NCBI GenBank assembly: GCA_029990205.1
Contig: JAPEKQ010000002.1
Location: 96,845 to 160,844 of the forward strand
Direction of reading: 5' to 3'
DNA length: 64,000 bases
Source of the DNA: a bacterium
GTDB lineage: Bacteria > Joyebacterota > Joyebacteria > Joyebacterales > Joyebacteraceae
The notes beneath the pieces are model-generated. The model searched no databases. It had not been told where the DNA came from and saw nothing but the letters and a program-made list of their open reading frames with translations. The translations under genes were made by a program, and so were the position numbers. Positions 46,369 through 58,985 of the stretch are shown here, one piece after another (within the stretch, counting starts at the first letter, position 1; each line of letters starts with the position of its first letter).

Positions 46369-47754
46369 TCAGACGACCAGACCGAGAGCGGGCCAGTAGA
46401 ACAACGCTGCCGCCGCGAAGAGTGCGAGCGCCACGATCTTCAGAAGCGCCCCCACACTCACGGAGTGCTTGAGTCGGAAGTACCCGGCCGAGTACGCGAT
46501 GGCGTTCGGCGGCGATCCCATCGGAAGCGCGAACGCGAGACCCGCCGGCACCGCCACGGCGTAGACGACGAGGACGGGGGGTATGCCGGCTCCCTCCGCG
46601 ATGCCGAAGCAGATCGGCAGGAGGAGCGCTACCGCGGCCACGTTGCTGATGGCTTCCGTCAGGAAGGTCGCCACGAGCGCGAACGTCATCAGCATCCAGA
46701 ACGGTGGCATCGCTCCGATGCGCGCCATCCCGGCCTCCGCGATCCACCGCGCCGCGCCGGTCTCGTGCAGAGCGGCCGCGATCGCGATCGCGCCGCCGTA
46801 CATCAGAATGACACCCCAGTTCACGTACTCCTCGACACTCTTCCAATCGATGAGATTGAACGCGAACATAGAGACCGCCGCCAGGAGCGATATCGAGGCG
46901 AGATCGAACCCGCGCCCCGCGACGATCCAGCAGACGATCGTGACGATCACGATGGCCGCGATCCCCTTCTCTCGACGCCCCATCGGACCCAGCGCGTTCG
47001 CCTTCTCACGAAGCACAAGGCTGGCCCCGGAGACGTCCGTGACGTTCGATGGGAACGACCTCGAGAGCAACAGGAAGATGGCGCCCATGAGAACGATGGA
47101 CAGCGGGGCCACGGCCACCATCCAATCAAGGAATCCGATCGACAGGTTGTAGTGCTCCTTGAGGATCCCCAGGGCCAGAGGGTTCCTGGCGCCTCCGAGG
47201 AACGTTGCGACGCCCCCGACGACGGTTCCCCATGCGAGCGCGAGGAAGAGGGCGCGCCCGTACCGGCTCCGGCCGGGCTCGAGTTCAAGTGCGCGAGCGA
47301 TCTCGAGCACGATGGGGAACATCAGCGCGGCGACCGCGTGCTCAGGCATCCAGAACGCGAGGAACCCGCCGGCGAGGATCACGCCCGCGAGGAGCGTCCG
47401 GGGCCCGGAGTCGAAACGCCGGAGGAACACCAGCGCGAGACGCGTCGACAGCCCCGACTTCATCATCGCCGCGGCCATGATGAACGCACCGAGAATGAAG
47501 AAGACCGCCGAACTGCCGAAGAGCGAGAACGATCTGGACGCCGGGATGACGCGCAGTGTGGGAAGCATGACGATGGCGAGGATGCTGGTCACGGCAAGGG
47601 GCAGCGCGCCCGTGACCCAGAGCACGAAGCAGAGCGAGAAGATAGCCAGCGCGCTCTGCGCCTCACGCGCGAGTCCATCGGGTGTCGGCGCGATGAGAAT
47701 CGCCAGACACAAGATGACCCCGCCGATGAGACCCAGCAGCCTGAAGCGCTTCAC
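46369..47754 (-). CDS. DASS-family (SLC13-like) divalent anion:sodium symporter
   Basis: About 460 aa, polytopic, with repeated hairpin motifs typical of the CitMHS/DASS ArsB superfamily (GGxATxxGxxxN, SPPNAIAYS). The start is uncertain between GTG 47754 and 47823. Confidence 0.7.
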   Translation of the reverse strand: MKRFRLLGLIGGVILCLAILIAPTPDGLAREAQSALAIFSLCFVLWVTGALPLAVTSILAIVMLPTLRVIPASRSFSLFGSSAVFFILGAFIMAAAMMKSGLSTRLALVFLRRFDSGPRTLLAGVILAGGFLAFWMPEHAVAALMFPIVLEIARALELEPGRSRYGRALFLALAWGTVVGGVATFLGGARNPLALGILKEHYNLSIGFLDWMVAVAPLSIVLMGAIFLLLSRSFPSNVTDVSGASLVLREKANALGPMGRREKGIAAIVIVTIVCWIVAGRGFDLASISLLAAVSMFAFNLIDWKSVEEYVNWGVILMYGGAIAIAAALHETGAARWIAEAGMARIGAMPPFWMLMTFALVATFLTEAISNVAAVALLLPICFGIAEGAGIPPVLVVYAVAVPAGLAFALPMGSPPNAIAYSAGYFRLKHSVSVGALLKIVALALFAAAALFYWPALGLVV

Positions 47755-47964: not shown

Positions 47965-50289
47965 CTACTTCAGAAGCACCATCTTCGCCGATGCCTCGCG
48001 GCCCCCGGCGATGATCCGCGAGAAGTACACGCCCGCGGCGACACCGCGCCCGGCATCATCTCTGCCGTCCCAGACAACCTGGTGGCTGCCGGCGTCGCGC
48101 TCATCGCCCGCGAGCAGCGTCCGCACGAGCCTGCCGGCCGCGTCATAGACGCGGACGTCGGCGGTCCCACTCGAAGGCATCTGGAAGCTCACGCTCGTGT
48201 GCGGGTTGAACGGGTTCGGGAAGTTGGAGATGGCCAGCTCCCGCGGCACGAAGTCGTCCACGCCCGTCTCGGGCCCCTCGATCGAGATGAGTACGTCATC
48301 GACGTACCAGCCGTCGCGCTCGATGTACCCGTCGGAGTCGAGCAGGAACCGGATCTTGAACTGCGACGTGCCGACGTAGCTCGTCAGGTCGATCGTCTCC
48401 TCGGTCCAGGTCGACTGGCTCCCGTCGTACGTCGCGACGTCGGTCCAGGACGAGCCGTTGTTCGTGCTCACCTCGACGTAGCAGTAGTCGTAGCCGGACT
48501 CGGTGTCGTAGCGGTGCCAGAACGAGAGCTCGGCGCCATCGGCAGAACTGAGATCGATGGCGTTCGCGAGCGTCATCGTCTCGTAGTCGTTGCTCCCGTA
48601 GTTGCCACCCGGACTGTCGGTCATGCAGGTGCTCGGGCTGTACGACGTGGTCGTCGTCGTGCCCCAGCTCCCGGTCCACTCGGCGAGACCCGACTCGATA
48701 TCATCGAAGAAGTCGGGCGCCGCGAGGACGAAATCGACCGAAGCGATCGTGCCGTCGCCGACGCTGACATCGAGTTCCTCTCCCGACGAGTATCCGCTGC
48801 GCGACGCGCGGACATCATAGGTTCCGACAGGGATGTACTCGATCTCGTAGTAGCCGGTCGCATCGCTCTCGTCGGAGTAGCCGGTGGCGTCGGTCAGTTC
48901 GACCAGCGCTCCCTCGAGCGGCAACATCGACTCGTCACGAACGTAGCCTGCGATCGAACCGCGCGGCGGCGGCTCGAGCGCGAAGTTCACGACAACGAAC
49001 GTGTCGAGACTCGCGGAAACGTTGTAGACGGTCTGCGTCGGGTAGTCATCGGCCGAACAGACCACCGTGTAGGTGCCGGTCTCGACCATCCGGTGGTAGT
49101 CACCCACGTCCGGATCGGTGTAGATGTCCTTGCCGATCTCGGGGATGCTGATCGTCGCGTCGATGGGGTCGCCCGTCTCGGCGTCGGTCACCATCCCGCG
49201 AATCCCGCGGCCGGACATTCTGGCCTGATACAGCATCGCCGGGATGTTGTCGTCGACGATCCCGTCGATCGAAGACTCCGGCGGATCCTTCGTGACCGAC
49301 ACCTCGATCGTCGTGTCGATCTCGCCCCTCGTCTCGTAGCACCAGTCCTGGCAGGTGCCATCCGCGACGTACCAGTCGGCGCCGTTGGTCACCGGAAGAC
49401 CGCTCAGCGCGCCGTACTCGTCCGAGATCGTGATGATCATCGGTTCGTCGGGGGTCGGGTTGTACGTGTAGTCCCAGAGGTAGTTGACGTAGACCGCGCC
49501 CGAATGGAACGTGAGCGACGTCACCGGCCGCTTGTCCAGGTCGAAGTCACGGAGCGCCTGCGTCTCGGGCTCGGAGAACGCGGAACCGGCGTTGCTTCCG
49601 TCCGGACAGAGGTAGTTCCGGTTGAGATCGGTCCCGTTCCCGTTGTAGCGGGAGCCGTTCTCGTAGCCGTCCGGATTGAACATCGGGATGATCGTGATCT
49701 CGCGCTCGTTGACGAGCCACGTCACCTGGGGATCGGTCCCGTAGTTCTCGAGGAGGTACTCGATCATGTAGTAGCAGACGGCCATACTGATGGTCTCGTC
49801 GCCGTGGTGCGCGCCGATCCACTGGATCTCGGCCTCGAACTCCTCGACCGTCGGGTTGTCCGTGATCTTCAGCGCCCACATCTCCCGGCCGTACACGCTC
49901 TGACCGATCGAGACGAGTTCCGTGATGTTCGAATAGGTCGACGCCCACGCCTGCATGTCAGCCGTGAGCTCCGCGTAGCTGACGTACACGCCGCGGTCGG
50001 GCACCTTGAGCGACGCCACGGCGTCGATCATGTTCTCGACCGTGATGGCGGGGCGGAACCCGTTCGCCCACAGCGTCTCGATCTCCTCGGGGATGGCGGC
50101 GATCTGCGCCTTCCCGTCGGTCACGGACATGATGTCCATGTGGAGCTCGTTGAGACGATGGATATCGGCCCGCGAGAAGATGTCCACTTCAACAACGGCC
50201 GCGTCATCGCGCGGATAGGCAAGGACGGTCCCGGGGAGCGTCAGCAGGATGAGGAGGACGCCTGCCAGCGCGAGCTGAGCGACCCTCAT
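47965..50289 (-). CDS. Secreted M14 zinc carboxypeptidase with CarboxypepD_reg-like and beta-sandwich domains and a type IX secretion C-terminal sorting domain
   Basis: Signal peptide MRVAQLALAGVLLILLTLPG (SD AGGAGA). M14 zinc ligands HHGDE...H (TFHSGA) and substrate site DLNRNY. Two Ig-like regulatory domains (GMVTDAETGDPIDATISI, GYVRDESMLPLEGALVE). The C-terminus NFPNPFNPHTSVSFQMPSSGTADVRVYDAAGRLVRTLL...GVYFSRIIAGGREASAKMVLLK is a Por_Secre_tail / T9SS CTD. Confidence 0.75.
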   Translation of the reverse strand: MRVAQLALAGVLLILLTLPGTVLAYPRDDAAVVEVDIFSRADIHRLNELHMDIMSVTDGKAQIAAIPEEIETLWANGFRPAITVENMIDAVASLKVPDRGVYVSYAELTADMQAWASTYSNITELVSIGQSVYGREMWALKITDNPTVEEFEAEIQWIGAHHGDETISMAVCYYMIEYLLENYGTDPQVTWLVNEREITIIPMFNPDGYENGSRYNGNGTDLNRNYLCPDGSNAGSAFSEPETQALRDFDLDKRPVTSLTFHSGAVYVNYLWDYTYNPTPDEPMIITISDEYGALSGLPVTNGADWYVADGTCQDWCYETRGEIDTTIEVSVTKDPPESSIDGIVDDNIPAMLYQARMSGRGIRGMVTDAETGDPIDATISIPEIGKDIYTDPDVGDYHRMVETGTYTVVCSADDYPTQTVYNVSASLDTFVVVNFALEPPPRGSIAGYVRDESMLPLEGALVELTDATGYSDESDATGYYEIEYIPVGTYDVRASRSGYSSGEELDVSVGDGTIASVDFVLAAPDFFDDIESGLAEWTGSWGTTTTTSYSPSTCMTDSPGGNYGSNDYETMTLANAIDLSSADGAELSFWHRYDTESGYDYCYVEVSTNNGSSWTDVATYDGSQSTWTEETIDLTSYVGTSQFKIRFLLDSDGYIERDGWYVDDVLISIEGPETGVDDFVPRELAISNFPNPFNPHTSVSFQMPSSGTADVRVYDAAGRLVRTLLAGDERDAGSHQVVWDGRDDAGRGVAAGVYFSRIIAGGREASAKMVLLK

Positions 50290-50348
50290 GGAACATCTCC
50301 TTTCACAGGGTTCTGACACGAGGACAGGTGGCCGGCACGCCGGCCACC

Positions 50349-50370
50349 CGCCCCCACGGATGAACTGTGC
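50349..50370. other. Perfect GC inverted repeat (ggtggccggc-ac-gccggccacc) between the selenoprotein candidate and the carboxypeptidase gene
   Basis: A 10+10 nt palindrome lies 45 nt downstream of the stop at 50415 and about 60 nt upstream of the carboxypeptidase ATG. It could be a terminator/attenuator hairpin or an operator. Confidence 0.35.
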
Positions 50371-50414
50371 GCCTATCTCCGGGCTGCGGAGTCAGGCTCT
50401 TGATCTGCGCTCCC

Positions 50415-52460
50415 CTACTTCAGAAGCGCCATCTTGATGACATCGGTCTCCTCCGCGGTCACGAGCCTCGCGAAGTAGACACCGGTGGCCACGCTTCTGC
50501 CGCCCTCGTCACGACCGTTCCACACCACCGAGTGCGGTCCAGCCTCGATCTCGGAGTCCACGAGCGTCCGGACGAGCTGTCCGTTGACATTGTAGACACT
50601 GAGTTCCACCGCGCCCGCGTTGGCCGGGACGCTGAACTGGATGTTCGTGACGGGGTTGAACGGATTCGGCGTGTTCTGACGGAGAGCGAGCTTCGTGAAG
50701 TCCGTCTCGGGCTCCTCGACCCCGGTCTCGTCGAAGTCGAACCAGTCCATGATCTTCCCGGCAACCGTCATCTGGTTGTTCGGATCCGGATCATCGGTCT
50801 TGATGTCCTCGAACGGGAAGGCGAAGAAGACGATCTTGTGCCCGTTCTCGGAGATCTTGAGCGCCTTGTTTCCGCTGCCCGTCGTGAAGATCACGTCGGA
50901 CGTCGTCTCGAACGAGTCGCTCTCGGAGTACGGGATCGGTCCACCGAGCAGACCGAGCGACATGCCGTCGGAGATGAAGTCGGAAGCAACGCCGGTCATG
51001 ATGAACCCGGATGTGTCGTTCGTCCACGACGTGACGTGGAGGTAGTCCTCGATGAACGTGTTGGTCGACCGGCTCGAGAGGTAGTTCATGCTCAGCAGCG
51101 CGAGGTTGCCGCCCGCATCAAGATACCCCATCATCGCGTCCTCAGCAGCGGCCGTGATCGTCAGCGCATCGCGGCTCGCCGTCGTCCAGAAGACCGCGTA
51201 GTAGTCGGTGAGCTGCGGCAGACCCGGCGTGCCGTCGGTGTACGGACTCAGCGTGTACGGGTAGTACCCGTTGTCGGTGAGCGCGTCCTGGATGTAGGTC
51301 TCGTACATCATCGGACCGTCGTCGTCGACGATGAGGATCGCCGGTGTCTCGCAGAAGGCCACGAATTCGGAAACCTGCTCCATCGCGTTCGCCGCACTGG
51401 TCATGCTGAGCGACGTCACACCCTTGTCCACGAGCGTTCCGTTGTAGTCGATGATGTGCACGGTGAGCGTCTCGGTATCGCCGGCCGCGACGAAAATGTC
51501 GGTCGCGCCCATGTAGCAGATGCCGTCGGTCGTGCAGTAGTTGGAGACCCAGTTGTACGGATCGCCGGGGAAGTCGGTCGTGAAGTCAAACGTGTACGTG
51601 TCGTCGGCGGTACCCGTGTTCGTGCAGTAGACGGTGTACACGGCCTCGCCGAAGAAGTCGATCTCCTCGGCGTGGTGCGTCGCGACCATCTCGAACGAAT
51701 ACGGATCGGGCATGATCGCCGCGTTGATGACCTGCTGCGGCGACTGATCCTCGATGAAGACAACGACGTGCATGTTGAGCGGGTTGTCCGTCGAGTTCGT
51801 CACACCCGTGAACGTCTTGTTGAACGTGACGTGCTCGCCGACCTCGAGATCGGCTTCGAGGATGGTCTCGGCCATGAGCATGTCGCGGACCGTGTACGGG
51901 TACGAAGCGTTCACGTCCTCGTAGATGACGAACTGCGCGACCAGGTCGCCCGCGCCGATGACATCCGTCGCTGTGAACGTGACATCGATCGTCCCGCCGA
52001 CGGTCCCGCGAGTCCCCTCGGCCACGATCGTGCCGGACACATCGATCTCGACCGGTGACGCGACAGCGAGACGAGACTCGACGATCGGGCCGAAGGTGTT
52101 CCCCACCGTCGTGCCCGCGCCAACGACATTCTGCGCACCATCGAACACCGTGTGCGGAATGCCGCCGACACTGTAGTAGCTCGCGCGCTGATAGGTGTCA
52201 CCAGTCGCGTAGATGTCGCTCACGTGGTAATAGAGCACCACGAGATCATCACCGTACGGGCCATACTGCACGCCGGTACTCGTGTGCACATAGCCGTTGT
52301 CCTGAAGGTCTACCAACGCCGCACGGGCGTTTGGGCAGTAGCCTCAGCCAGTTGATCCAAAGAGCTCCGCCAGGACCGCCCTGTCCGACGCGAGGGCGGA
52401 GACGGCGGACATCAGCAGGACTGCCGTCACGAGGGCAAAGATCGCCGTACGCTTCACCAT
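50415..52460 (-). CDS. Candidate selenoprotein: secreted thioredoxin-fold protein with UxxC motif (in-frame TGA at 52344-52346) and T9SS C-terminal sorting domain
   Basis: AAGGAG-N6-ATG at 52460 opens the signal peptide MVKRTAIFALVTAVLLMSAVSALASDRAVLAELFGSTG, followed by TGA, then the same frame continues for 643 codons. The region around the TGA aligns without gaps to the CxxC of the adjacent paralog: RAVLAELFGSTG-U-GYCPNARAALVDL versus RNVLVEFMTDFA-C-VNCPNGEAALENL. The C-terminus TPNPFNPVTNIQFSVPANAGAVELSVYNVNGQLVRTL...GVYFARLVTAEETDVIKMALLK is a T9SS CTD. The ORF track only reports the part after the TGA, starting at 52316. Confidence 0.55.
52344..52346 (-). other. In-frame UGA codon, candidate selenocysteine recoding site
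   Basis: This is codon 39 of the ORF above. It aligns to the first Cys of the CVNC motif in the paralog at 52618-53706. An imperfect hairpin (roughly nt +4 to +35 after the UGA, with a GU-containing apical loop CGUGC) is present where a bacterial SECIS would be expected. It was folded by eye only. Confidence 0.45.
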
Positions 52461-52617
52461 GCTGCTCTCCTTTCGCGGCGATGCCGCGCTGCTCTCAGGA
52501 TCCTTTCGCCCAGCCCAATGTGGCGACAGTGTTCCTGCTCTCGTGCTGTCGTTTCATGCTTCCTGTCGTCATCCGCTGCTGTTATGTCCTTCTCCCTGCA
52601 CCTGTGGTTCATCTATC

Positions 52618-53706
52618 TCAAGGACGCTGCGAGGTCGAGAGCCTCGCCGACTGAATGATCTCCAGCGTGTCATCGTTCTGAATGAACGCGATCGCGTCCA
52701 GATTCGCTGCGTTCCAACCGGGGTCGAGCGTCACGTCGTAGATGACCTCGGTGGACTCTCCGACTGCGGCCAGTGTGAACTGCTCGTCGTCGAGGATGTC
52801 GCGCGCGACGAACGGGAACAGATGCTGCGCGAAGGCAACATCCTCCTCCATCACGACGGTTCTCAGTACGTAGTCGCCCGCCGGCAACGCGTCTTCGACC
52901 CACACCTTCGCCGTCAACGAAGCGCGCGCCGAGAGGTCGCCGGTCAGCTCCATCGTGAGCGGTGACCCCACCGCCCGTCTGAGCTCGATCTCGAACTCGT
53001 ACTCGTCCTCGGCCTCCGCTACCGACGCGGCGCCGACGATCAGGCGCCCACCGTCGAAGATGGCCATCGGATGACCGCTACCGCCCGGGAACTCGGGATG
53101 GTTCAGATACCAGGTCTCCCGGGCCGCGGTCTCCGCCGTCCCGACCGGCTGGAGTGTGTGCCAGGCGACGACACAGAGCCTGTCCCTGCCGTACGCGTCC
53201 ATGAGGTTCTCGAGCGCCGCCTCGCCGTTGGGGCAGTTGACGCACGCGAAGTCGGTCATGAACTCGACGAGCACGTTCCGGTCGACCAGCCCCCCGGCCG
53301 GCCCGGCCGAGAACGAACAGGTCGCCGCTGTTCCCTCATCACCGGCGTCATCGACGGCCGCGACGGTGAAGACGTGATCGCCCTCCTCTACACTCTCAAT
53401 GAGAAGCGTGTCCGCCGTCGTCGATCCCGTGACGGTGTCGTCGTACGTCCACTCGTAGCTCGCCACATCACCATCGATGTCCGTGCCGACCCACCGGATG
53501 ATCGTGTCCTCGCCGGCGAGAAGCGTGCCCGCCTGGGGACAATCGGTGATCGTCACGCTCGGCAGGAAGTTCGCCGCGATCGGATCTGTGAACCAGTCAC
53601 ATCCTCCCTGTGCCGCGATCCAGACGACCAGGAGGATGAGCGCGAACAGCGGCCTGGCGGCGCGCGGCCGACCAACGCTGCTCGTATGATGCGTTCCGTT
53701 CGTCAC
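52618..53706 (-). CDS. Secreted/lipoprotein-like thioredoxin-fold protein with CxxC (CVNC), Cys-containing paralog of the selenoprotein candidate
   Basis: Signal peptide with a lipobox-like WIAAQGGC, an Ig-like beta-sandwich domain, then VLVEFMTDFACVNCPNGEAAL...LCVVAWH...GHPMAIFDGG. This is a thioredoxin-like beta-strand/CxxC/helix arrangement followed by a cis-Pro loop. It has no T9SS CTD. Confidence 0.6.
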   Translation of the reverse strand: MTNGTHHTSSVGRPRAARPLFALILLVVWIAAQGGCDWFTDPIAANFLPSVTITDCPQAGTLLAGEDTIIRWVGTDIDGDVASYEWTYDDTVTGSTTADTLLIESVEEGDHVFTVAAVDDAGDEGTAATCSFSAGPAGGLVDRNVLVEFMTDFACVNCPNGEAALENLMDAYGRDRLCVVAWHTLQPVGTAETAARETWYLNHPEFPGGSGHPMAIFDGGRLIVGAASVAEAEDEYEFEIELRRAVGSPLTMELTGDLSARASLTAKVWVEDALPAGDYVLRTVVMEEDVAFAQHLFPFVARDILDDEQFTLAAVGESTEVIYDVTLDPGWNAANLDAIAFIQNDDTLEIIQSARLSTSQRP

Positions 53707-53718
53707 GAAACCATCCTC

Positions 53719-55197
53719 CTAGAAGTAGGTCGTCAGTCTGACGCGCGCACCCGAGAACTCCGGCTCGACGCGGCAGACGCCGCCCGAGCACTTGAGACCG
53801 CCGCGCTCGCTTCCGATCGACACGCCAAGCTCGAGGTCATCTCTGAGAATGCTCTTCACCTCGAACATCGCCCAGACACTCCGGTCCTCGGACTCGTCAT
53901 CCGTTCCCTCGACAACCGACGCGAAGGTGATGCCGGACGACGTGTAGACGGTCATCGCGACGAGGTAGTCGAGCGATACCGTCTCGGCGATGTCGGTCGT
54001 CTCACCGGCCTGCACCTGGAGCTCCATCGGCTGACCCGACGGCAGCGGCAGGATCACTTCCGCTCCGGCCGTCTTGTGCTCGATGAACTTGCCGAGTTCG
54101 TACTCGCGGGACCAGGCGGCTCCGGCAGAGAGTGACGTGTCACCGATCCACGCGTCGGCCTGCCCGAACATCTCCCAGTGCGCCAGGTCGGCGTCGTGGT
54201 TCCTCGCCTCCGACGCCCCGCCGAGGACGGTGACGCTCTCTCCGAGCGGCACGGTCGCCTCGACAAGATACCCGCGCTCGTCGTTGAGCTTCGGCTCGTA
54301 GGTCGCGCGGTTCATCAGCGTCCAGAGATGCTCGCGTACGGCCGTCGGCGGATTGACCAGGAAGTGCTGGAACCGGTCGTAATCCTTGTACTCACCGAAC
54401 AGCGTTGCCCACGGCAGCTCGACCGTCGCCGTGACATAGGTGGCATGACCCTCCATGTCATCGATCTCGAGTTCTCCGTCGTCGCCCTGACGCCCGACAT
54501 ACTCGCCCGCCAGCGACACCGGACCGAGCCACGCATTCACCTCACCGCCCAGAAGCAGGTCCTCGGAGCGCCCGAGTGACTCGGTAACGATCGGATCGTC
54601 GTCTTCCTTGTTCGACGCCCGCTCAACGACGCTTCCCGCGATGTCGAGCCAGCTCGCGACCGAGCGGGTCGCGCGAACAGCGCGAACGTTGTGCCTGCGA
54701 TACCTCGTCTCGGACAGCGGCTCGTCCACGGAACCCGCCAGCACGGTCACATCGGCGGCCGAGAACGAATACTCACCGAGCAGGCCGTCGAGCACGGTGT
54801 CGTGCTCAAGATCAACATCCTCGAAGCTCCTCAGAGCCAGCCCGCGACCGAACGTCGAGTAGAAGTGTCCCACCCGCAGGTGGAGATTCTCACGGTCGAG
54901 CGCGGCGTACCGGTGCTTGATCTCGGACTCCGGGATGTTCACGCCAGCCGGGTTGTATGTCGGCAGCGAGAGCTGGTAAGCGCGGTAGACGGCGCCCACG
55001 GTCAGCGGACCTATGCCGGCATCGACTTCGAGTCTGGCGTCGAAGGCGGACGCCTCCTCCCCCGTATCGAAGAGATACTCGCCGGTCACCGCGCCGCTCG
55101 ACCAGGCTCCGTCATCGGCCGAGGCTATCGCCGGCGCGACGGACATGAGTCCCGCAACGGCGATGCAAAGGAGGACTCGTCTAGTCAACGGCTCCAT
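53719..55197 (-). CDS. Predicted outer-membrane beta-barrel protein (uncharacterised)
   Basis: Signal peptide MEPLTRRVLLCIAVAGLMSVAPAIASADD, alternating amphipathic beta-strands throughout, and a C-terminus ...RVRLTTYF (terminal aromatic residue typical of OMPs). A CSGGVC pair lies near the C-terminus. The ORF track's first 47 aa are artefact. Confidence 0.5.
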   Translation of the reverse strand: MEPLTRRVLLCIAVAGLMSVAPAIASADDGAWSSGAVTGEYLFDTGEEASAFDARLEVDAGIGPLTVGAVYRAYQLSLPTYNPAGVNIPESEIKHRYAALDRENLHLRVGHFYSTFGRGLALRSFEDVDLEHDTVLDGLLGEYSFSAADVTVLAGSVDEPLSETRYRRHNVRAVRATRSVASWLDIAGSVVERASNKEDDDPIVTESLGRSEDLLLGGEVNAWLGPVSLAGEYVGRQGDDGELEIDDMEGHATYVTATVELPWATLFGEYKDYDRFQHFLVNPPTAVREHLWTLMNRATYEPKLNDERGYLVEATVPLGESVTVLGGASEARNHDADLAHWEMFGQADAWIGDTSLSAGAAWSREYELGKFIEHKTAGAEVILPLPSGQPMELQVQAGETTDIAETVSLDYLVAMTVYTSSGITFASVVEGTDDESEDRSVWAMFEVKSILRDDLELGVSIGSERGGLKCSGGVCRVEPEFSGARVRLTTYF

Positions 55198-55762
55198 CCT
55201 CGTTGACGGCCGCTTCCTCGGTCTCAGCCTCGTCGCCCTCGTCCGGACAGTCCTCGGGGATGAGCGCCGCGACGGCGGCGTCCAGTTCCGCGTGGTTCGT
55301 CGGCCGGTACCCGGTGACCGCCCACGCGACCGTCCCATCCTGCCTCACGAGAACCGTGCGCGGGACCGACGTCACGTGGTACTTCTTCGCGACGGCCATA
55401 CTCGGGTCGAGCAGCACCTCAAAGGTGTTGCCCTTCGAGGCGATGAACGGCTTCACCTTCGAGGTCGAACGAGGTCCGTCGATCGAGATCGCAACGACCG
55501 TCAGACCGCAGTCTTCGTATTTGTCAAAGAGCTCCTGCAGATCCGGAAAGGCCTTGATGCACGGCTTGCACCACGTGGCCCAGAAATCAAGGACAACCGG
55601 TCCATCCTTCAGCAACTCAGAGAGCGTCACATCTTCGCCGTCGATGTTCTTCAGCGTGAACTCGGGCGCCTTCGCATTGGCGCCGTATGACATAGTCGTC
55701 CCCATCAACACGAGGACGGCCGCGCACAGAAGTGCGAGTCCGGTTCGTCTCCTGCCGGTCAT
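55181..55762 (-). CDS. TlpA/ResA-like periplasmic thiol-disulfide oxidoreductase
   Basis: Signal peptide, then VVLDFWATWCKPCIKAFPDLQEL...VVAISID..., the redoxin fold with WCxPC. Confidence 0.8.
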   Translation of the reverse strand: MTGRRRTGLALLCAAVLVLMGTTMSYGANAKAPEFTLKNIDGEDVTLSELLKDGPVVLDFWATWCKPCIKAFPDLQELFDKYEDCGLTVVAISIDGPRSTSKVKPFIASKGNTFEVLLDPSMAVAKKYHVTSVPRTVLVRQDGTVAWAVTGYRPTNHAELDAAVAALIPEDCPDEGDEAETEEAAVNEDGAVD

Positions 55763-55788
55763 GAGTCCCCCAATAGTTGGCCTAACTT

Positions 55789-55817
55789 ATTATACCACCA
55801 TCATTACCAATGGTCAA
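55789..55817 (-). promoter_or_regulatory. Near-consensus sigma70-type promoter (TTGACC-N17-TATAAT) driving the TlpA-led operon
   Basis: The minus strand reads TTGACC attggtaatgatggtgg TATAAT in a local AT-rich patch. The TlpA start codon is about 27 nt downstream, with SD GGGGGA. Confidence 0.4.
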
Positions 55818-56046
55818 GGCATCATCAGAGCGGCCCTGTTCGACCGATCTGGCGCCTGTCCCCCTCACCATGAGCGGAAGTCCGCGTACAGGGCCTTCCA
55901 CGGCTCCGACGTACGCGCCCCCGACCATCGTCTGCTTCGATGCAGACGTCAGCCGGGGGGATTCGACGCTCTTGTGCCGGTCATCATTCGTTGCCGGCGC
56001 AACTGCTTTGCACACAGTAATATAGCGGGTCATCGCGGTATCCGGT

Positions 56047-56721
56047 CTATCCCGCGAGCGCTCCCGCTTCAACTCCCAGTGTATGAACGGGCTCGGTGTC
56101 CGGCCCCAGGTGCCCGAGGATGCATCCAAGCGCCTCATGGATGGCGTCCTCGTCGGTGACCAAGTTCATCGAGTCGGTCTCGAGCGTCAGGACCGTCGTC
56201 TCTGCCCTGGCCCGGTCGCTCCAATCCTCGTACGCGTCGTTGAGCGCCTCGAGATAGGCCGGGTCGATGTCACGTTCGCAGTCGCGCCCGCGACATCCGA
56301 TACGGTCGAGCAGCGTGCCGACTCGCGCCCGCAGATAGACGATGAGATCCGGCGTCCTCAGGAAGCTCGTCATCGCATCGAAGAGCGCGGTGTAATTCTC
56401 GTAGTCGCGCTCGGGCATGTTGCCCTGACGGTAGAGGGTCGTCGCGAAGATCTCCTTGTCCTCGTAGATGGTCCTGTCCTGAATGCACGACTCGTCCGAG
56501 CCGACCATCTCGCGGTGGATCTCAAAACGCTTCGAAAGGAAGTAGACCTGAAGGTGGAACGACCACCGGTCCATGTCGGAGTAGAAGTCGTTGAGGTAGG
56601 GGTTGTTGATGACCGGTTCGTAGTACGCGCGCCATCCAAGCTGGTTCGCGAGCAGCGTCGTGAGGTGCGTCTTGCCGACACCGATGTTTCCCGCGACCGC
56701 GACAAACTGTCCGGGCTTCAT
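56047..56721 (-). CDS. Deoxynucleoside kinase (dNK/dGK family)
   Basis: P-loop VAVAGNIGVGKTHL, the ERS-like region YEPVINNPYL, and a DRY-like lid region. The start is probably MKPGQF at 56721 (SD GGAG); the track ORF extends to 56829. Confidence 0.7.
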   Translation of the reverse strand: MKPGQFVAVAGNIGVGKTHLTTLLANQLGWRAYYEPVINNPYLNDFYSDMDRWSFHLQVYFLSKRFEIHREMVGSDESCIQDRTIYEDKEIFATTLYRQGNMPERDYENYTALFDAMTSFLRTPDLIVYLRARVGTLLDRIGCRGRDCERDIDPAYLEALNDAYEDWSDRARAETTVLTLETDSMNLVTDEDAIHEALGCILGHLGPDTEPVHTLGVEAGALAG

Positions 56722-56900
56722 GAGCGACTCCAGGGCTGTTTCGGCTGACCGCCGGCGGAGGAACGCCGGCTCGAGGCGGTCGCAGTATAGGATGTTCGGC
56801 TCGCGAGTGTCAACGGCAATCGGGGCCATCCAGAGGATGACCCCGACAGAATCTCAGATGGCCACAACGCTGCGTTCCTGCGCCGGCCCGCGGCGTCCGC

Positions 56901-57293
56901 TCAGGCCACGATGACGACTTCGGTCCCGACCTCGACGGCCGCAGCGAGACGCGTGAGTTCCTCGTTCCGCATCCGTATGCAGCCGCGGCTCGACTTCGTC
57001 CCGATCGAATCGGGCTCGTCCGTCCCGTGGATGCCTATCCCCTCCCACGGCGGGCAGTCCAGCCGCAGGAAGAGTGGGCCGTACGAAAGCCTGCCCGCAT
57101 GCTCCCAGTCGCCTGAGTCCTCGATGGACACGATTCGGAACGTCCCCTCGGGAGTCCGACAGTCCCCGACCGCCAGCTTGTCCCCCGCATCGGGGTTCGA
57201 GCCGATGCCGATCGTGAATCGCTCGGTCCCCGCGTCGGTGACAAGCTCGAGCGCGAACTCGGACTTCCTCACGATGATGCGCGAGGCGCTCAT
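56901..57293 (-). CDS. L,D-transpeptidase catalytic domain protein (YkuD fold)
   Basis: GIHGTDEPDSIGTKSSRGCIRMRNEEL is the His/Cys catalytic motif of L,D-transpeptidases. Confidence 0.7.
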   Translation of the reverse strand: MSASRIIVRKSEFALELVTDAGTERFTIGIGSNPDAGDKLAVGDCRTPEGTFRIVSIEDSGDWEHAGRLSYGPLFLRLDCPPWEGIGIHGTDEPDSIGTKSSRGCIRMRNEELTRLAAAVEVGTEVVIVA

Positions 57294-57591
57294 CGATCAG
57301 TCTCCGGGCTCTGCTCGCTGCGGCTCTGCTGCGTCGTCTCGTGCGTGCTCTTCTGCGTCGCCTCCTCTGCTCCCTGTTCTGTGGTGTTCACCCGCTCCGC
57401 GGGTTCGCATGAACCGCGGAGTCAGGTCGACACCCCCAGACGGGGCAGGATCACAAGCTGCAGCAGAAGCCAGACCGCCACGAACGCGATCGGCAGCGCC
57501 AGTTCGCCCATCCTCATCGTCCACCCGCTCCTTGATCGAACCGTGTGTCGCCCGGACACTCTCCGGGCTACCTGGATGCTCTCCGGTCTAT

Positions 57592-58176
57592 CTAGATGTT
57601 CTCCGCGCCGCCCAGGAGCATCTCGATCTCGGACCGCATCTCGGGACGCATCTCGTTGGAGAAACCGATGTGCTTGGCTGCGATGCGACCGTCGCGCCCG
57701 ATGATGAACGTCGTCGGAATACCGCTGACCTTGTACGCCTCACCGACGGTACGGTTGCCAACGAGAATCGTGTAGTCGATGCCGTTGCTGTCGACGAACG
57801 GAGCGAGATCCGTCGCGCCACCCTGGTCGAGGCCGACGATCTCGAGCCCCTGCTCTTCGAACTCATCGTAGAGCTCTATGAGGAACGGGATCTCCTCGCG
57901 GCACGGCGGACACCACGTCGCCCAGAGGTCGAGCACGACGACCTTGCCATCGAAATCGCTCAGCGAGACTTCCTCGCCGTCGAGATTCGGAAGCACGAAC
58001 GCCGGCGGGAACTCACCCACGTTGACGCCGGTCTCCTCGGAGGTTTCGGGGCTGTCCATCGCGACGGTCTCGTCCGCCGTCGTCGCGGCCTCGTCCGTCG
58101 AGCCGCTGCACCCGCCGAGGATGCCGACGGCGAACAGGGCGATCAGCGCGAAGGCCACTGCGTTTCTCATCTTCAT
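57592..58176 (-). CDS. TlpA-like thiol-disulfide oxidoreductase lipoprotein
   Basis: Lipobox ILGGCSG, then VVLDLWATWCPPCREEIPFL in a redoxin fold. Confidence 0.8.
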   Translation of the reverse strand: MKMRNAVAFALIALFAVGILGGCSGSTDEAATTADETVAMDSPETSEETGVNVGEFPPAFVLPNLDGEEVSLSDFDGKVVVLDLWATWCPPCREEIPFLIELYDEFEEQGLEIVGLDQGGATDLAPFVDSNGIDYTILVGNRTVGEAYKVSGIPTTFIIGRDGRIAAKHIGFSNEMRPEMRSEIEMLLGGAENI

Positions 58177-58240
58177 AGTCTCACTCCCTGAGCTGTGTCC
58201 GCGCCGGGCGCCGTGCGCCGCGCGGAAGCTGTGTCCGTGC

Positions 58241-58573
58241 CTATGCGAGATGCTGGTCGATGCGCTCCTGGATGCTCTGCTTCGAGGCGGCGCCGACGAT
58301 CATGTCGACCTGCTGTCCGGCCTTGAAGAACAGAAGCGCGGGGATGCCGCGGATGCCGTACTGCTGCGCGAGCGTCGGGTTCTCATCGACGTTCACCTTC
58401 GCGACCTTCATCTTGCCTGCGTTGTCGACGGCGATCTCGTCCACGACGGGACCGACGAGCCTGCACGGGGCACACCAGGGCGCCCAAAAGTCCACGAGGA
58501 CCAGTCCGCTGTCACCAGCTACTTCCGTCGCGAAGTTGTCGACCGTTGCTGTGATCACGCCTTCTCCAGCCAT
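58241..58573 (-). CDS. trxA: Thioredoxin
   Basis: 110 aa with LVDFWAPWCAPCR and a cis-Pro region GIRGIPALLFF. Confidence 0.85.
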   Translation of the reverse strand: MAGEGVITATVDNFATEVAGDSGLVLVDFWAPWCAPCRLVGPVVDEIAVDNAGKMKVAKVNVDENPTLAQQYGIRGIPALLFFKAGQQVDMIVGAASKQSIQERIDQHLA

Positions 58574-58643
58574 TGTACTCCCCCTGTTGCCCCGCCGTCA
58601 TGCGGCGGGTGTTTCGGGTCCGCTGCCACTGTTGTCGATCGTT

Positions 58644-58985
58644 CTAGTTCCGCTTCCCGCTCGCGCGCCCGTGTGCCGGGGGCACAAGCACCTTCAACAC
58701 CGCCGCCGCAGACTCATCCCGCAGCCGGTAGCAGACGAGGTGCCCCTTTCTCTCCGACTCGATGAGCCCCGCGTACCGAAGCCGCTGCAGATGCTGGGAA
58801 ACCGACGGCTGCGGCACCCCCAGAAGCTCCTCAAGCCTGCTGACACACAGCTCCCCCTCCCGAAGCAGATGCACGATTCTGAGCCTGGTCGGGTGAGACA
58901 TCGCTTTGAGGACCTCGGCAGCGCGGCCGAAGGTCTCTTCGATGTTCCCGCTGCCTGGTGAGGTCATGGTCACGCTCCTTGTCAC
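58644..58985 (-). CDS. ArsR/SmtB-family metal/redox-responsive transcriptional regulator
   Basis: Winged HTH: LKAMSHPTRLRIVHLLREGELCVSRLEELLGVPQPSVSQHLQRLRYAGLI. Confidence 0.75.
   Translation of the reverse strand: MTRSVTMTSPGSGNIEETFGRAAEVLKAMSHPTRLRIVHLLREGELCVSRLEELLGVPQPSVSQHLQRLRYAGLIESERKGHLVCYRLRDESAAAVLKVLVPPAHGRASGKRN

Follow-up and report, generated by a model that had tools for sequence, protein, structure and literature searches.

The 64,000-nucleotide stretch of contig JAPEKQ010000002.1 analysed here (the window), from a bacterium of the GTDB phylum Joyebacterota, carries at 50415–52460 on the minus strand a locus that is, in all likelihood, a single gene encoding a secreted selenoprotein of 681 residues. 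The product is very probably a cell-surface thioredoxin-like protein in which an active-site Cys has been replaced by selenocysteine (Sec). The ATG at 52460 opens a reading frame whose codon 39 is TGA (52346–52344), and after this codon the same frame remains open for 642 sense codons before it ends with TAG at 50417–50415. An earlier note on this DNA had described the ribosome-binding site, the signal peptide, the TGA at codon 39, the continuing frame and a C-terminal sorting domain (CTD) of the type IX secretion system (T9SS), and all of these are present (Table 1). The note had read the gene as a candidate UxxC selenoprotein. This reading is supported by the TGA found in orthologues, by the existence of Cys homologues, by a hairpin after the UGA, by a genetic code that is not reassigned, and by the thioredoxin fold together with the CTD. 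Judged by the standard comparative criteria as applied to sequences, the selenoprotein interpretation is well supported and we hold it with good confidence.

In public records the gene is mis-annotated as a truncated call that lacks the signal peptide as well as the redox motif. The gene calls for JAPEKP010000002.1 and JAPEKT010000004.1 consist of a 38-residue open reading frame (ORF; 52344–52460) and a 624-residue protein (50415–52289), and split or truncated calls are found in all of the orthologous contigs examined, except for one that bears TGC in place of TGA.

The UGA codon across orthologues and paralogues

A protein search returned 28 orthologues, nearly all of them 611–634 residues in length and starting just past the TGA column (with 'MQQLQ…', 'LQQLQ…' or 'MVDLQ…'), which is the signature of gene callers halting at an in-frame stop. 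In several contigs a separate upstream ORF of 35–38 residues is called as well. We compared the DNA at the TGA column in a set of 17 distinct sequences, comprising orthologues and paralogues from the window and 13 further contigs (NCBI, JGI, ENA and Logan assemblies). This comparison, which the earlier note had proposed, finds TGA in 16 of the 17 sequences and TGC in one (contig L100, a Candidatus Eisenbacteria metagenome-assembled genome, MAG); wherever TGA is present, it is codon 39 or 40. A codon kept in this way is not there by chance. The residues flanking it are also kept on both sides, as …QR(T/A)VLAE(L/M)FGA(T/S)W-U-GYCPNARAAL(Q/V)…LQ. On the 5' side of the TGA, invariant residues are encoded by mixed synonymous codons, for example CGG, AGG, CGA, CGT and CGC for Arg and GTG, GTC, GTT and GTA for Val, which indicates that the upstream ORF is under protein-level selection in this frame.

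TGA and TGC are one base apart and one MAG has TGC, as might be expected if the premature stop were the mark of a pseudogene or of a sequencing or assembly error. However, the same TGA recurs in 16 independent and divergent sequences (40–100% identity, 43–66% GC) drawn from all four sources, with frames that are intact over ~670 codons, so that a pseudogene or an error is hardly credible.

The neighbouring gene at 52618–53706 on the minus strand was taken in the earlier note for a paralogue with the first Cys of its CxxC motif at the position of the TGA. BLASTP bears this out (E 2e-18, 26% identity over 238 residues): the first Cys of CVNC in this protein aligns with the TGA column, and the ORF on the 5' side of the TGA is homologous to the β1 strand of the thioredoxin domain of the paralogue. 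Orthologues of this Cys paralogue are all full length, and hence carry Cys. Cys homologues are abundant in the wider family. A HMMER search of 1.84 billion representatives yielded 1121 related clusters, of which the best 149 were examined at the TGA column; 130 of these have CxxC there, and 14 are missing the N-terminus, most of the latter being CTD proteins of ~600–627 residues. Two of the 14 were checked at the level of DNA, and both contain an in-frame TGA. The first, on contig L103 (48% GC), is part of a tandem pair of TGA paralogues, 'TATW(TGA)VYCP' and 'TSTT(TGA)PVCP', located beside a Cys paralogue with 'TSTTCPPC'; the second, on contig L104 (43% GC), reads 'GYPT(TGA)GYCPYARAAL'.

Pairs of tandem Sec paralogues, each with its own in-frame TGA, are seen in contigs L095 (at 1779 and 3898), L097 (831 and 2953), L101 (1066 and 3183) and L103 (2998 and 5078). 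In L103, Cys paralogues lie on both sides of the pair. These arrangements indicate that switching between Sec and Cys, as well as duplication, is active in the family.

Taken at face value, the public gene calls describe two genes, a 38-residue ORF that ends at the TGA and an independently initiated protein of ~624–633 residues, and exactly this split is what gene callers produce. The downstream product would then have no signal peptide despite its T9SS CTD. Moreover, orthologues differ both in the codon called as the start (GTG, TTG or ATG) and in its position, and a conserved ribosome-binding site was not seen for these starts. Between the TGA and the called starts, the sequence (GYCPNARAAL…) shows conservation as protein and supplies the remainder of the CxxC motif and of helix 1 in the thioredoxin fold; the upstream ORF has its counterpart in the β1 strand of the paralogue. 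Two separate genes are therefore very unlikely.

An in-frame TGA, considered alone, would also speak for a code in which UGA is reassigned throughout the genome (genetic code 4 or 25). TGA is nevertheless the stop codon of 17 of the 50 predicted genes in the window, and the products of these genes are of normal length. They include tmk, already cited in the earlier note as evidence for a standard code, which has a full-length Pfam match. The code is therefore standard, and we give reassignment practically no weight. When the window was scanned for further in-frame TGAs in a coding-like setting, a single case came up, at 46369–46371 on the minus strand, where the TGA is the stop codon of a Na+/sulfate symporter gene and a Usp gene (start 46332) follows in the same frame; we judged this arrangement coincidental and rejected it as an instance of recoding. 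The pseudogene, split-gene and code-reassignment readings are thus effectively excluded.

The hairpin downstream of the UGA

The earlier note had proposed testing the RNA after the UGA for a stable hairpin with a GU apical loop, resembling a selenocysteine insertion sequence (SECIS), and such a hairpin is present. The upper stem-loop, AACGCC-CGUGC-GGCGUU at 52331–52315, begins 12 nt past the UGA, and the lower stem includes the UGA itself, with UGAGG paired to CUUCA. The minimum free energy (MFE) of the hairpin is -18.1 kcal/mol over 46 nt. The published model of bacterial SECIS elements (bSECIS) specifies a loop of 3–9 nt, an upper stem of 4–16 bp, a distance of 16–37 nt from the UGA to the loop together with an MFE of <=-7.5 kcal/mol, and, within loop positions 1–2, a G whose next base is usually G or U (PMC13188914). 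With an upper stem of 6 bp, a 5-nt loop of sequence CGUGN that has G-U at positions 2–3, and a UGA-to-loop distance of 18 nt, the hairpin falls within all four of these constraints.

The upper stem is invariant in 17 of 17 sequences. Position 5 of the loop is the only base that varies freely, and it does so by altering the encoded amino acid, since codon +8 may be GCG, GAG, GTG or GGG. Synonymous sites are fixed in the same region. The Arg codon of the hairpin is CGT in all 17 sequences, whereas CGT makes up 12% of the Arg codons in window genes; the Leu codon is TTG in 16 of 17, compared with 2.6% of Leu codons; and the two Ala codons, GCC and GCG, are each found in 17 of 17. In the codon alignment, normalised synonymous entropy drops to 0.02 at codons 44–53, the minimum for the whole gene, compared with a gene mean of 0.47. 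This frozen codon choice argues for selection on the RNA.

The core of the hairpin, ACGCC-CGUGC-GGCGU, also follows directly after the TGA in L104 (222–290). Retention of this GC-rich core in a contig of 43% GC, against its own base composition, suggests an old SECIS that is shared in the clade. The two TGA paralogues of L103 have different hairpins of their own 11–17 nt past the UGA, one of them with a folding z-score of -3.8. The lone TGC orthologue, L100 (1573–1640 of JAFGPT010000394.1), retains the complete sequence of the SECIS-like hairpin. Its TGC is either a very recent change from Sec to Cys or a consensus or base-call artefact in the MAG.

Several results weigh against the assignment of Sec. 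Neither RNAalifold nor explicit pair counting found compensatory covariation in the SECIS stem, and shuffle controls were not exceeded. Covariation is absent because the stem is invariant, so that conservation, the constraint on synonymous sites and agreement with the published model carry the case for a SECIS. Folding z-scores are modest (-1.9 over 46 nt and -0.7 over 91 nt), and a search of Rfam at the gathering cut-offs and at E<=10 returned only a Neisseria frameshift element, matched by chance (E 8.4). The conserved residues N-A-R-A-A-L are encoded within the hairpin, so protein-level constraint accounts for part of its conservation. Genes for selA, selB, selD and tRNA-Sec were not found in the 64-kb window or in 21 related loci; ARAGORN detected no tRNA-Sec in the window or the related loci, and a tblastn search of the related loci with E. 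coli SelD returned nothing. Since the search covered ~64 kb of one genome and 21 loci, the absence of the machinery is uninformative rather than negative. Finally, a surface-exposed redox site is without an obvious electron donor.

The UGA might instead be read through by a near-cognate or suppressor tRNA that inserts a standard amino acid (Trp, Cys or Gly), stimulated by the hairpin and without any involvement of Sec. A hairpin just past a stop codon can stimulate read-through in general. The failure to find Sec machinery in the window or the related loci, and the one orthologue with TGC, are compatible with such a mechanism. However, this column holds the Cys that serves as nucleophile in a CxxC redox motif, which is where Sec and Cys classically replace each other, and the hairpin matches the bSECIS model in its spacing and G-U loop. 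Were the residue Trp or Gly, the redox motif would be lost, and yet it is conserved. In addition, the homologous family GOS_C/NF045500, described below, is a recognised UxxC selenoprotein family. We therefore regard read-through with a standard amino acid as a minor alternative, and an unlikely one, to the insertion of Sec.

Domain architecture and relationship to known proteins

The signal peptide was judged by inspection to be tripartite, with MVKR at its start, a hydrophobic core, and ALA before the following S, and it is present in all relatives. In the AlphaFold2 (AF2) model of a Cys orthologue, residues 1–19 have a predicted local distance difference test score (pLDDT) below 50. The AF2 models were built on this orthologue, with a pLDDT of 90 for residues 1–440 and 96 for the N-terminal unit, and they contain a thioredoxin fold, an Ig-like sandwich, a second sandwich and the onset of an α/β domain from orthologue residue 365. 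In the model with pLDDT 96, the thioredoxin domain has the topology β-α-β-α-β-β-α (E4–10, H17–31, E36–42, H50–58, E66–69, E73–76, H82–94), and both Cys residues, at model positions 14 and 17, are at the start of helix 1. A Foldseek search with the whole model gave mostly tandem Ig-like matches, such as transglutaminases, and because these swamped the output a domain-only model was needed. The domain-only model matches thioredoxins with root-mean-square deviations of 2.1–3.0 Å and TMt values of 0.65–0.82.

Searched against solved structures, the family profile matches the DUF1223 protein 2axo (E 1.1e-8), M. jannaschii thioredoxin 1fo5 (5.7e-8), HBP35 5y1a (2.1e-7) and Omp28 2r2c (7.4e-4). There is also a weak Pfam Omp28 (PF11551) match at residues 93–248, whose 26.6 bits are below the gathering score of 34.9. 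The first sandwich and the thioredoxin domain together form an Omp28/HBP35-like unit. The α/β domain, ~215 residues that precede the CTD, has no sequence match in Pfam, NCBIfam or the PDB and is strongly conserved in the alignment. At the C-terminus, the curated profiles for the sorting domain score 50.6 bits for PF13860 FlgD_ig (cut-off 27), 28.4 for PF18962 Por_Secre_tail (27) and 31.7 for TIGR04183 (23). The thioredoxin fold and the T9SS sorting domain that the earlier note had read from the sequence are thus both confirmed. A profile search of contigs with the full-length alignment was discarded; it returned 80 irrelevant loci, drawn in by the generic T9SS CTD motif NxPNPFNPxT.

Table 1. 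Features of the probable selenoprotein locus and adjacent genes (window coordinates; residue numbers refer to the 681-residue product)
Feature	Coordinates	Strand	Basis
Ribosome-binding site AAGGAG, 6 nt before the ATG	52467–52472	-	Read from sequence
ATG and Sec-type signal peptide, residues 1–24, MVKRTAIFALVTAVLLMSAVSALA followed by S	52389–52460	-	Inspection; kept in 17 related sequences
Predicted selenocysteine (in-frame UGA at codon 39), opening the U-G-Y-C redox motif	52344–52346	-	Conservation; alignment with Cys
SECIS-like hairpin	52303–52346	-	MFE, invariance, synonymous constraint, bSECIS fit
Thioredoxin-fold domain, residues ~29–131, UxxC at the N-terminus of helix 1	52068–52376	-	AF2, Foldseek, profile matches
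Two Ig-like β-sandwich domains, residues ~137–249 and ~256–370	51351–52052	-	AF2; weak Pfam Omp28; HBP35 profile alignment
α/β domain of unknown function, residues ~375–590	50691–51338	-	AF2; conserved ILxVDDDG...WTTA...GGNL motifs
T9SS type A C-terminal sorting domain, residues 598–681, and TAG	50415–50669	-	Curated profile cut-offs
Cys paralogue, 362 residues, PKD/Ig-like domain and Omp28-like thioredoxin unit with CVNC	52618–53706	-	BLASTP
DUF6029 predicted outer-membrane β-barrel	53719–55338	-	PF19494, E 1.5e-27
M14 carboxypeptidase with T9SS CTD, downstream	47965–50319	-	PF00246, E 2.4e-51, and FlgD_ig CTD

HBP35, the 35-kDa hemin-binding protein of Porphyromonas gingivalis, is a cell-surface T9SS cargo that bears a signal peptide, a thioredoxin domain and a CTD. 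Its secretion and glycosylation go through the Por/T9SS pathway (PMC2907840, PMC3120885), and the C48S/C51S mutant no longer reduces insulin (PMC2907840). The protein encoded in the window has the same order of parts, namely a signal peptide, an N-terminal thioredoxin-like domain, a β-sandwich and a T9SS CTD, and the profile match to HBP35 (PDB 5y1a; E 2e-7) spans both the thioredoxin domain and the β-sandwich. The family motif W-U-GYCP is that of HBP35 (…FTAEW-C48-GY-C51-P…) with U substituted for the first C, so that U aligns with Cys48. HBP35 differs in that it has Cys rather than Sec, is 344 residues long, has neither the second β-sandwich nor the ~215-residue α/β domain, and comes from the Bacteroidota. 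The Trp before the active-site residue (TW-U/C-GYCP), which is usual, as in WCGPC of thioredoxin and WCGYCP of HBP35, is replaced by Gly or Thr (STG-U, ATT-U) in the window (52347–52349, minus strand) and its closest relatives.

A selenoprotein family homologous to this one was already predicted in 2008, when Zhang and Gladyshev described the hypothetical protein GOS_C from marine reads (PMC2398784). A 2026 review equates NF045500, 'Omp28-related selenoprotein', with GOS_C and gives it a UxxC motif, one Sec and a thioredoxin-like fold (PMC13188914). The Global Ocean Sampling (GOS) data contain 74 Sec and 312 Cys sequences of GOS_C (PMC13188914, PMC2398784). Our protein resembles this family in its thioredoxin-like fold, its UxxC with one Sec, its many Cys homologues and its bacterial SECIS-like element right after the UGA. 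Against the NF045500 hidden Markov model (HMM), however, it scores 40.5 bits (E 2e-10), where the curated cut-off is 200, and nine truncated relatives score <=85 bits, one of them with no match at all. The Cys paralogue scores much the same (42.5 bits), which indicates similarity at the level of the superfamily only. The model has 377 positions, compared with the 681 residues of thioredoxin, two Ig-like, α/β and CTD regions here, and GOS_C was described without mention of secretion or T9SS (PMC2398784). On these sequence scores, the protein is a distant relative of NF045500 and not a member.

Omp28 of P. gingivalis (PF11551, 2r2c) and DUF1223 (2axo) belong to the same superfamily of thioredoxin-plus-β-sandwich proteins. 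Our protein is below the Pfam gathering score for both (26.6 versus 34.9 bits and 18.1 versus 30.7 bits, respectively), and those proteins contain Cys. Omp28, moreover, is a lipoprotein and not a CTD cargo.

Some UxxC selenoproteins with signal peptides act outside the cytoplasm. The UxxC families that have been listed include Sec-containing thioredoxin and the DsbA-like, DsbG-like and thiol:disulfide interchange selenoproteins (PMC13188914). Like the protein described here, these are thioredoxin-fold oxidoreductases with Sec in place of the N-terminal Cys of CxxC, but they show no detectable specific sequence relationship to it, and none is described as T9SS cargo in the literature searched. 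Predicted secreted and outer-membrane selenoproteins, the latter a TonB-dependent receptor and an MtrB/PioB barrel, are included in the 2026 review (PMC13188914), and a secreted trypsin-like protease is listed among the selenoproteins in the GOS paper (PMC2398784). Extracytoplasmic Sec is therefore not unheard of. The earlier note had called a selenoprotein with a T9SS CTD, bound for the surface or the outside of the cell, unusual; the novelty it claimed was too strong. Our literature searches found nothing that links selenoproteins with T9SS, Omp28, HBP35 or Eisenbacteria.

Gene neighbourhood and predicted function at the cell surface

The gene is part of a conserved redox and envelope gene cluster at 47965–58985 on the minus strand. 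In the high-GC orthologous contigs the conserved order is an ArsR-type regulator, a thioredoxin, a ResA/TlpA-like redoxin, a 31-residue membrane peptide, YkuD (an L,D-transpeptidase), a deoxynucleoside kinase, a second ResA-like redoxin, the DUF6029 β-barrel, the Cys paralogue, the Sec protein or proteins and the M14 carboxypeptidase with CTD. Of the 10 contigs in which genes are called at that position, 9 have the Cys paralogue directly upstream of the Sec gene; the exception is L103, where a 671-residue CTD paralogue is the upstream neighbour. In every orthologous contig, L103 included, the DUF6029 gene is found upstream of the Omp28-like genes, and the M14 carboxypeptidase lies downstream in the high-GC orthologous contigs, with one contig excepted. 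Parts of the gene order, among them the pairing of DUF6029 with Omp28-like genes, thus recur even in the distant L103. None of the annotated window genes encodes T9SS machinery (PorK/L/M/N, Sov, PorU/V), and a scan of the locus for promoters and terminators found nothing.

Between the ResA-like redoxin gene and the YkuD gene, at 57422–57517 on the minus strand, there is a hydrophobic ORF of 31 residues, MRMGELALPIAFVAVWLLLQLVILPRLGVST, with its own AAGGAG. The peptide is kept in all orthologous contigs, including the divergent contigs L088 and L089, which have no gene call there. The ORF probably encodes a genuine small membrane protein that belongs to the redox cluster.

We propose a route by which the Sec protein would reach the cell surface. 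Translation would begin at the ATG at 52460, and at the UGA of codon 39 the hairpin would recruit SelB with Sec-tRNA(Sec), leading to insertion of Sec in place of termination. As the sorting signals suggest, the signal peptide would then take the protein across the inner membrane, and the T9SS would move it across the outer membrane by way of its CTD, to be held at the surface or released. Within the W/G-U-G-Y-C-P motif of the thioredoxin domain, Sec would act as the attacking nucleophile, and it would keep an extracellular site reactive and resistant to irreversible over-oxidation. The motif is shared with WCGYCP of HBP35, in which disulfide-reducing activity depends on Cys48 and Cys51, and by homology the protein would therefore most likely function as a surface-exposed selenol/thiol-disulfide oxidoreductase.

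What is new here is a predicted selenoprotein of the HBP35/Omp28-like kind that has several domains, carries a T9SS sorting signal and is consistently mis-annotated in MAGs. We suggest tentatively, with rather less than even confidence, that it is the first explicitly recognised selenoprotein among T9SS cargo, placing Sec on the outer face of the cell, beyond the known supply of reductant, in a conserved surface module. That module would consist of the DUF6029 β-barrel, a Cys paralogue, between one and three Sec paralogues in tandem and the CTD-bearing peptidase, in candidate phyla of the FCB group, and its substrates may be extracellular protein disulfides, or alternatively chalcogen, metal or heme.

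Every public gene call that we saw for the orthologue group is wrong, whether it is the 611–634-residue protein or, in several contigs, this protein accompanied by the 35–38-residue ORF, and a family-specific model would mend dozens of MAG annotations. The identity of the W-C/U-GYCP motif with that of the characterised HBP35 allows a direct comparison of Cys and Sec in an extracellular thioredoxin-like protein. If true, the selenoprotein interpretation extends the use of Sec to an Eisenbacteria-like lineage, a label that rests on named homologues at ~40–47% identity, and to multi-domain T9SS cargo, and it places selenium chemistry at the cell surface.

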